DNA from: a virus
Taxonomy: Duplodnaviria; Heunggongvirae; Uroviricota; Caudoviricetes
DNA: 25,587 nt
Strand: one strand, 5' to 3'
Virus record (IMG/VR): IMGVR_UViG_2537561620_000017
Coordinates: 1 to 25,587 of that record
A program made the translations under genes and the position numbers. Positions 14,058 to 14,965 of this stretch are shown one piece after another. The notes beneath the pieces are model-generated. The model had not been told where the DNA came from and ran no database searches. It was given only the letters and a program-made list of their open reading frames with translations. The first letter of the stretch is position 1. Each line of letters begins with the position of its first letter.

Positions 14058-14965
14058 TCAGAATGTCAGTTTGTCACTGGATTTACCGAATTTGTCAGAC
14101 ATGGCTCCCAGGCCAGCCAGGACATCGACCTGTCGCTGTCGCCCACCTCCGGGAGCGGCTGGCTGTTGCCAGAAGTCTTCGAAGTGACGATCGGGTCCAA
14201 AGAACGTCGCAGCCTGCTTCACGAACTGTGTGCCGGTATTTCCTGTGGCACGTACCCAGGCAGCATAGCGTTTCACGCCATCAAGCATGGCTTCAGGTTT
14301 TATTCCCTCCCTGAGCCGGGCTTTCCAGGCTTTGAAGGCTGCGGATTTTGAGTTACCACCAGCACGTTTTGGATATTCCTGCCAGGCCTGTTCAAATTCC
14401 GGTGAATATTCCTGTCGGGAAGAACGCGCTGGTGCAGACGCGTCAGCAGATGCGCCAATAGTGTTTTTACTCTCTGTAGTATTCTCTGAAGTAATCTCTG
14501 TTGTATTCTCTGTAAGATCGAAATTGGTTTTCCCTTCTCCGCGGCGAGGGGTTTCCCGTGTCCGCGGTGAAGGCTTTCCCTCCTCCGCGAAATTGGGTTT
14601 TACAGTTTCCCGAAAACGGGTTTCCCCATTTCGGGAAACTGATTGTTTTCATTGATAATTTCATTAAGGCGCTCACAATCTATACGGTAGAACATTTTGT
14701 GCTCAAGACGCTTGTTGGTTTCAACCAAAATGCCTCTGGACACAAGATGCTTACGCGCTACAGCCTGTTGTTCAAATGTAAGTCCGGTTTCGTGTTGTAT
14801 CTCTTCACGCGTTTTATGTACGCCTTCCGCTGCATGTGCTTTATCCTACCAGTAAAAAATCTGACCAAAGAAAATAACAGCGTGCGGACTTCCCATGTAT
14901 TTAACGAGCCCAGGGTAATAAGCAACCGGATGTCCAAAATCGAGCAGAAGATCAGACGGACGCAT
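14058..14965 (-). pseudogene. lambda O-like replication initiator (replisome organizer) with an in-frame amber codon and a -1 frameshift
   Basis: N-terminal frame MRPSDLLLDFGHPVAYYPGLVKYMGSPHAVIFFGQIFYW-TAG-DKAHAAEGVHKTREEIQHETGLTFEQQAVARKHLVSRGILVETNKRLEHKMFYRIDCERLNEIINENNQFPEMGKPVFGKL stops; the rest continues in the -1 frame (...RETVKPNFAEEGKPSPRTRETPRRGEGKTNFDLTENTTEITSENTTESKNTIGASADASAPARSSRQEYSPEFEQAWQEYPKRAGGNSKSAAFKAWKARLREGIKPEAMLDGVKRYAAWVRATG...KLTF). TAG is at 14846-14848; the frame change is within about 14600-14650. Confidence 0.75.
14470..14640. repeat. ori: iteron-type replication origin inside the O-like gene
   Basis: Three roughly 23-bp direct repeats on the gene strand (CGCGGAGGAGGGAAAGCC / CGCGGACACGGGAAACCC / CGCGGAGAAGGGAAAACC), plus degenerate GGGAAAC copies, next to an AT-rich block with ACAGAGAATAC repeats. 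Same layout as ori-lambda (iterons plus AT-rich region inside O). Confidence 0.7.

Follow-up and report, generated by a model that had tools for sequence, protein, structure and literature searches.

Phage lambda encodes its replication origin within the gene of its own initiator. The O protein, of ~300 aa, has the origin at the junction of the sequences for its N-terminal DNA-binding and C-terminal domains, with the iterons at nucleotides 349–433 of the gene, an AT-rich tract after them and the helicase-loading gene directly downstream. The product of that next gene, the lambda P protein, captures host DnaB. Stx phages with 'Eru' units depart from this plan in that their early region replaces lambda O and P by other DNA-binding, helicase or primase genes, and some Eru types start with Rha-family genes (PMC8044961, PMC8951638). 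The cryptic prophages of Shigella are eroded by insertion sequences (IS), and they combine frameshift and nonsense lesions with IS truncations and deletions; in the published genome of S. flexneri 3b SFL1520, for example, most phage regions are described as cryptic after losing genes (PMC6424224).

We analysed a stretch of 25,587 nucleotides (IMG/VR record IMGVR_UViG_2537561620_000017), hereafter the window, in which an O-like initiator gene had been noted to carry an amber codon and a frame change. This locus is very probably a dead initiator gene in an IS-eroded lambdoid prophage remnant of S. flexneri, inactivated by a deletion and then hit by an amber mutation, presumably mainly through neutral decay. 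The gene and its neighbors are as follows.

14058–14965, minus strand: O-like replication initiator pseudogene, 908 nt (intact relatives 909 nt, 302 aa)
13169–14047, minus strand: DnaC-like AAA+ helicase loader, full length, 292 aa, with the derived missense change D122G
11898–13172, minus strand: DnaB-like replicative helicase, truncated, 424 aa
9173–11926, plus strand: ISSfl3 (IS66 family; tnpA, tnpB, tnpC), abutting the helicase gene, with terminal inverted repeats GTAAGCGCCCC
14952–15185, minus strand: upstream 77-aa gene, PHROG 1153, function unknown, its 3' end overlapping the start of the initiator gene
15182–16042, minus strand: Rha-family regulator gene, in which homology to the prophage of the intact relative ends at 16026

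Compared with lambda, the arrangement is alike and the sequence is not. The intact initiator is again a protein of about 300 aa with a candidate origin inside its gene, between an N-terminal DNA-binding and a C-terminal domain. The iteron-like repeats here occupy about nucleotides 325–445, with the AT-rich tract after them as in lambda, and the initiator gene is directly followed by a helicase-loading gene, then by a DnaB-family helicase gene. The partners, a DnaC-type AAA+ loader and the phage's own DnaB-type helicase, are unlike lambda P, and the intact protein has no significant sequence similarity to lambda O and no Pfam Phage_rep_O match. Its closest counterparts are the intact orthologues BCI49716.1 (Stx2_EH2201), BCI49055.1 (Stx1_14040) and WP_001247839.1 (E. 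coli O121), which have 95–99.6% DNA identity and the same gene order as the window (Rha, 77-aa gene, initiator, DnaC-like, DnaB-like). They differ from the window in having an intact gene of 909 nt, CAG at codon 40 and TTTT after codon 109. The Rha-family gene at the start recalls some Eru types, and the text of the Eru papers contains no mention of a DnaC-like gene; the module was placed in no Eru type (PMC8044961, PMC8951638).

Reading the minus strand in three frames and aligning the gene with three intact 909-nt homologues located the following features; the positions that the original prediction had given for the amber codon and the frame change are accurate.

14846–14848, minus strand: amber TAG for CAG (Gln40), the second, later lesion
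14636–14638, minus strand: TTT run that is TTTT in all intact relatives, a 1-base deletion after codon 109 that shifts the frame, the first, older lesion
14600–14602, minus strand: TAA ending the shifted N-terminal frame in the three-frame reading
14448, minus strand: synonymous TCC to TCT, on the same branch as the amber codon

In the first minus-strand frame of 14971..14058, MRPSDLLLDFGHPVAYYPGLVKYMGSPHAVIFFGQIFYW (MRPSDLL...GQIFYW) leads to the TAG at 14848..14846, and the frame then continues as DKAHAAEG...NENNQFPEMGKPVFGKL up to the TAA at 14602..14600. The remainder of the initiator is read in a second minus-strand frame, as ...SRNGETRFRETVKPNFAEEGKPSP (SRNGETRF)...SDKLTF, with its stop at 14058. 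Because of the amber codon and the frameshift, no full-length initiator can be made, as had been claimed. Exactly three differences separate the gene from its closest intact homologue, in E. coli O121 201805972: the T deletion, the C to T change at 14848 (C118T in the gene), which turns CAG for Gln40 into TAG, and the synonymous change at 14448 (C519T in the gene). The amber codon falls within helix 27–43 of the N-domain, before the helix-turn-helix. If it were absent, the shifted N-terminal frame would give a product of 121 aa, and a 121-aa gene is in fact called in assemblies that have only the deletion. Deamination at a Dcm site was considered as the cause of the C to T change at 14848 and rejected, as the context ACTGGCAGGAT lacks CCWGG.

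A premature stop and a frameshift thus interrupt a gene that is otherwise colinear with intact orthologues, the picture of a pseudogene. Probes of 61 bases centered on each lesion gave 116 matches in 101 complete E. coli genomes, all at 98.4%; each of the 116 therefore differs at one base, and neither lesion is present in any of these E. coli copies. The amber context had no exact match in the species-representative genome collection. The alignment with homologues places neither a gene boundary nor a recoding site at the lesion positions, either of which would have spoken against the original prediction.

The identity of the intact protein is suggested by annotation-level homology, gene order, origin-like repeats and a predicted fold, and it agrees with the original reading of the gene as an O-like initiator. 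In megablast, at least 80% of a 1301-base query around the gene was covered by sequences of 100 E. coli genomes and of 20 phage records, and E. coli O121 strain 201805972 was the best match, at 99.6%. There, as in Stx-converting phages, a single 909-nt gene for 302 aa occupies the region; its annotation is 'LvrA C-terminal domain-related protein' or 'phage replication protein O'. The intact homologue matches PHROG 270 'replication initiation protein' (1.3e-64, residues 28–301) and PHROG 9773 'replication initiation O-like' (1.4e-36, residues 2–202), names that are annotations rather than functional evidence. Pfam gave no match up to E 10 save an irrelevant one to Tti2 at 0.4, and none to Phage_rep_O; NCBIfam gave no match, and a PDB sequence search found no solved structure. 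BLASTP of the intact protein against lambda O gave nothing significant, the lowest E value being 0.039, over 26 residues that are out of register. In all, 1392 homologues of the initiator were found, including proteins of Klebsiella, Enterobacter, Serratia and Pantoea. In some of them (among P0071–P0120) the C-terminal domain is joined to unrelated N-terminal domains of the Pfam HTH_36 or GntR type, which suggests that origin-binding modules have been swapped onto a constant partner-binding domain in this initiator family.

The AlphaFold model of the intact homologue (P0001), built from 23 homologues, shows a predicted winged-helix domain at residues 1–110, a disordered stretch at 110–184 and a helical domain at 185–270. 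Residues 11–110 have block-mean pLDDT values of 69–89, with helices at 53–60 and 64–76 followed by a β-hairpin at 80–95. The top Foldseek matches in the PDB were all winged-helix proteins, albeit weak (E ≥ 0.03), and the same search gave no identification of the C-domain. The predicted fold is therefore that of a protein with an N-terminal winged-helix DNA-binding domain. Taken with the position of the repeats described below, we conclude that the protein probably works like lambda O, yet it stands outside the lambda O sequence family.

The DNA that encodes the disordered residues 110–184 contains, in order, a quasi-palindrome, direct repeats and an AT-rich tract, all found by repeat search.

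14603–14641, no strand: quasi-palindrome with 18-nt arms, at the start of the iteron tract
14526–14594, no strand: three 23-nt direct repeats, iteron-like, each with a GGGAAAVC box on the minus strand
14468–14512, no strand: AT-rich tract of 12-nt repeats, 35% G+C, beside the iterons and resembling an unwinding element

The box GGGAAAVC has eight matches in the window, where 2.5 are expected, and four of the eight lie within 14527–14626. Iteron-like repeats and an adjoining AT-rich tract are thus located at the interdomain linker, as expected of an origin within a coding sequence.

The lost T is at the outer edge of the imperfect palindrome at 14603–14641, where it forms a bulge in the intact stem. 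Its loss removes the only bulge of the stem, leaving 13 continuous pairs, and the fold of the single-stranded DNA changes from −12.9 kcal/mol in the intact sequence to −15.8 kcal/mol in the window, so that the hairpin is ~3 kcal/mol stronger after the deletion. Slippage in runs of T and template switching at quasi-palindromes are both known mutational routes. The deletion has the signature expected of a template-switch mutation at a quasi-palindrome, and T-run slippage explains it equally well.

To follow the lesions beyond the window, carrier contigs were retrieved by exact protein sequence, with the truncated helicase protein and then with the 76-aa C-terminal open reading frame (ORF) of the initiator. 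For the truncated helicase protein, the index of the assembly collection points to 58 blocks, with eight loci listed (L004–L011). Both lesions are present in all eight, which include assemblies from NCBI and from Logan, the latter made from separate sequencing runs; in three of the eight there are further private substitutions. Lesions accompanied by private substitutions form the pattern expected of an inherited pseudogene. Among ten loci recovered with the C-terminal ORF, seven carry the deletion. The independent assemblies accordingly do not correct the lesions, and the T deletion is present in every same-lineage assembly checked.

These assemblies fall into two states. In L016, L017, L021, L022 and L023 the T deletion is the only difference from the intact E. 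coli O121 gene; LR861785.1 and LR861788.1, two of these five, are S. flexneri 3a (PMC9455713). The window, L020, L025 and L004–L011 have the T deletion plus C118T, the amber, plus C519T. L020 (GCA_000268245.1, contig AKMX01000023.1), which is S. flexneri K-1770 (PMC6397287), equals window positions 8058–20288 exactly, with 12,231 bases identical; L025 is S. flexneri VA-6, and a further carrier, CP032513.1, is SFL1520, whose prophages its authors call mostly cryptic (PMC6424224). Three substitutions in the 4.1-kb module, at 14848, 14448 and 12857, mark the amber sub-lineage. Five assemblies carry the deletion alone, which makes the T deletion the earlier event; by the time the amber appeared the gene was dead, and the two lesions are successive hits rather than a joint event. 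The 424-aa truncated helicase is common to deletion-only and deletion-plus-amber assemblies. An NCTC long-read assembly (L019) with a different 1-base deletion was considered as an independent knock-out and set aside; in that assembly the neighboring loader and helicase are likewise broken up into several ORFs, and the deletion is probably an assembly error.

The state of the genes downstream is mixed. The loader, described in the original prediction as intact, is so in length: the ORF is full length, at 292 aa, in all same-lineage assemblies, and has both Walker A and Walker B. Its domain matches are to IstB_IS21 (1.6e-15) and to NCBIfam DnaC (1.4e-38, below the cut-off of that model). The loader does carry D122G, derived in the S. 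flexneri lineage, which is one of two missense changes among four differences from the closest relative in 879 nt; one further private change was found within the lineage. The helicase gene is cut. Its phage-derived sequence ends at 11927, codon 415 of 463, and the last nine codons are supplied by ISSfl3. There is no target-site duplication at the ISSfl3 ends, and a lysis-gene fragment lies on the side of the element opposite the helicase, indicating that ~3.6 kb is missing in comparison to the E. coli O121 prophage. In the O121 prophage this segment comprises ninH, the Q antiterminator gene, four tRNA genes, the holin gene and part of the lysis gene. FDAARGOS_943 (H64) appeared to share the junction between ISSfl3 and the helicase and was rejected, as its helicase gene is intact and an unrelated IS cluster had merely been joined by the search.

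Erosion extends through the rest of the window. Homology to the O121 prophage stops at 16026, inside the Rha/ash genes, and the cI/cro region of this closest relative has no counterpart in the window. The window contains IS911, IS2, ISSfl3 and further IS3-family elements, antirepressor genes and two integrase genes, one per end (135–1205, minus strand; 24835–25587, plus strand). A RecE fragment (21773–23134, plus strand) covers positions 202–596 of an 877-position model, and a fragment of the terminase large-subunit gene (6811–7602, minus strand) is cut beside IS2. Remains of two or more prophages seem to have been brought together in the window, with IS911, IS2, ISSfl3 and other IS3-family elements lying between them. 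A second replication gene (17665–20011, minus strand) encodes a primase-helicase with Toprim and AAA_25 domains and has lost its 5' end beside an IS3-family element. The original view of the prophage as replication-defective is therefore upheld: the initiator is dead, the helicase gene is cut by ISSfl3, cI/cro is absent and the second replication gene is truncated. The element is defective in many ways and cannot replicate as a phage.

Several observations were made on these neighboring genes. The P-loop of the primase-helicase holds a LAGLIDADG intein (GHGKA|CPL...VATHN|T); an intact 968-aa primase-helicase is found in Klebsiella phage phiKp_30, and intein-less versions in mEp043 and Sf101. 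At 18770, a change from A6 to A5 frameshifts the endonuclease domain of the intein. Among the assemblies that span this site and the one at 16268, both changes are private to the K-1770 assembly, and six other S. flexneri assemblies have a longer A run at 18770 and a continuous 760-aa ORF, so that the difference may be a homopolymer assembly error. At 16268, a change from T6 to T5 frameshifts a HigB/Gp49-like toxin gene (16060–16392, plus strand) in the K-1770 assembly only; 14 other assemblies have T6 and an intact 109-aa frame. The frameshift at 16268 stems either from faulty assembly or from a mutation that occurred very recently. The HigA-like antitoxin gene at 16382–16690 is intact.

The closest relative with an intact initiator has a decayed prophage of its own. 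E. coli O121 201805972 (L012, 1–30001) carries ipaH as well as IS1 and IS911 insertions and resembles enteroinvasive E. coli. Its prophage is also defective, with the terminase gene cut by IS1 and a partial tail-tip gene, and its initiator gene is intact. The initiator is thus not the first gene lost in every lineage.

Two other accounts would leave the gene functional. That sequencing or assembly introduced the lesions into a gene that is intact in the real genome is highly improbable. The deletion does lie in a short homopolymer, and the same assembly has the two private homopolymer frameshifts at 16268 and 18770; these private differences serve as an internal control, showing how an assembly-specific lesion presents itself, whereas the T deletion is also present in a hybrid long- and short-read complete genome as well as in assemblies of separate sequencing runs. 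The amber, moreover, is a substitution, and it is present in the window, L004–L011, L020 and L025. Programmed recoding, by which amber read-through or suppression together with ribosomal frameshifting would give a full-length protein, is scarcely conceivable at this locus. A glutamine-inserting amber suppressor would restore Gln at a CAG to TAG change, and the two frames overlap by ~40 nt in a region that contains TTTCCCG. However, the incoming frame reads CAG TTT CCC GAA, which puts TTTCCCG out of phase for a slip site of the form X XXY YYZ. Beyond the S. flexneri lineage no relative has either site (none of the 116 E. coli copies, no aligned phage gene), and the deletion-only and deletion-plus-amber assemblies represent successive states of one lineage.

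Two further accounts take the gene to be dead and explain its loss otherwise than by neutral decay. Loss of the initiator may have been selected, and more than once, if an active initiator acting on a chromosomally fixed origin in the absence of a repressor caused harmful local over-replication; this explanation is unlikely, with a small but real chance of being right. The cI/cro region of the closest relative is indeed absent from the window, and related copies are broken independently. In CP026810.1 (L018, 4473–5735) the iteron tract is interrupted by an IS3-family element flanked by a 3-bp ACC target duplication, and the helicase gene there is intact; in S. flexneri K-315 (L024, 5323–6231) a 98%-identical copy has AAA changed to TAA at codon 167, but there the loader gene beside the broken initiator copy is broken too. 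Inactivating changes make up two of three in the initiator gene of the window versus none of nine in the flanking 3.2 kb, an imbalance that is marginal, drawn from tiny counts and post hoc in a region chosen for its lesions. Shigella genomes have very many pseudogenes and IS insertions. Given this general abundance, a single prophage gene is expected to be hit repeatedly even in the absence of selection, and in the ipaH-carrying E. coli O121 the initiator is intact though the prophage itself is defective. A variant of selected loss concerns the deletion-only lineage, in which the 121-aa fragment, a winged-helix domain by its predicted fold, might have attached to the iterons and kept related phages that enter the cell from replicating; any such blocking would have ended with the amber in the window. 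It is very unlikely that the host has kept the DnaC-like loader or the origin DNA for its own use and discarded the initiator. The full-length loader ORF with intact Walker motifs in all same-lineage assemblies fits such retention, but the divergence of the loader, four differences in 879 nt with two missense, is too small to show constraint, its partner helicase is truncated, and the paralogous K-315 loader is broken. The part of the original prediction that found no support is therefore the word domesticated: nothing points to recruitment by the host, and the remnant is an IS-eroded patchwork with a cut helicase gene, ~3.6 kb missing and a loader bearing D122G.

We therefore favor mainly neutral decay of a dead initiator gene. 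Before its inactivation, the intact protein would have bound the iterons and brought in the phage's own DnaC-like loader and DnaB-like helicase, a role proposed from gene order, repeats and predicted fold. Its flexible linker would be encoded by the phage origin itself, that is, by the iterons and the AT-rich tract. The first step in the S. flexneri lineage was the loss of one T at the outer edge of a quasi-palindromic iteron, cutting off the N-domain from the C-domain. In the sub-lineage that includes the window, a later C to T change converted Gln40 to an amber codon; with the gene dead by then, this second hit was probably neutral. Beside ISSfl3 the module has also lost the 3' end of its helicase gene and the late-control region, and the immunity region is absent.

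The locus is a case of ordinary gene decay, an already known kind of feature, with no new mechanism; it shows the same picture as other cryptic IS-eroded prophages of Shigella and no difference in kind. What is added is detail, namely the order of the two lesions and the quasi-palindromic setting of the first. The case also shows how inherited lesions can be separated from assembly-specific homopolymer errors, as two private frameshifts occur within about 4 kb of the gene. The initiator family is without a Pfam or NCBIfam model, despite the annotation 'replication protein O' in Stx phages, and a curated model would be modestly useful. The gene itself is best annotated as a pseudogene (frameshift and internal stop) of an O-like initiator in a cryptic S. 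flexneri prophage. Since the deletion occurs alone in some assemblies and together with the amber in others, these two changes could be used to mark lineages within S. flexneri.
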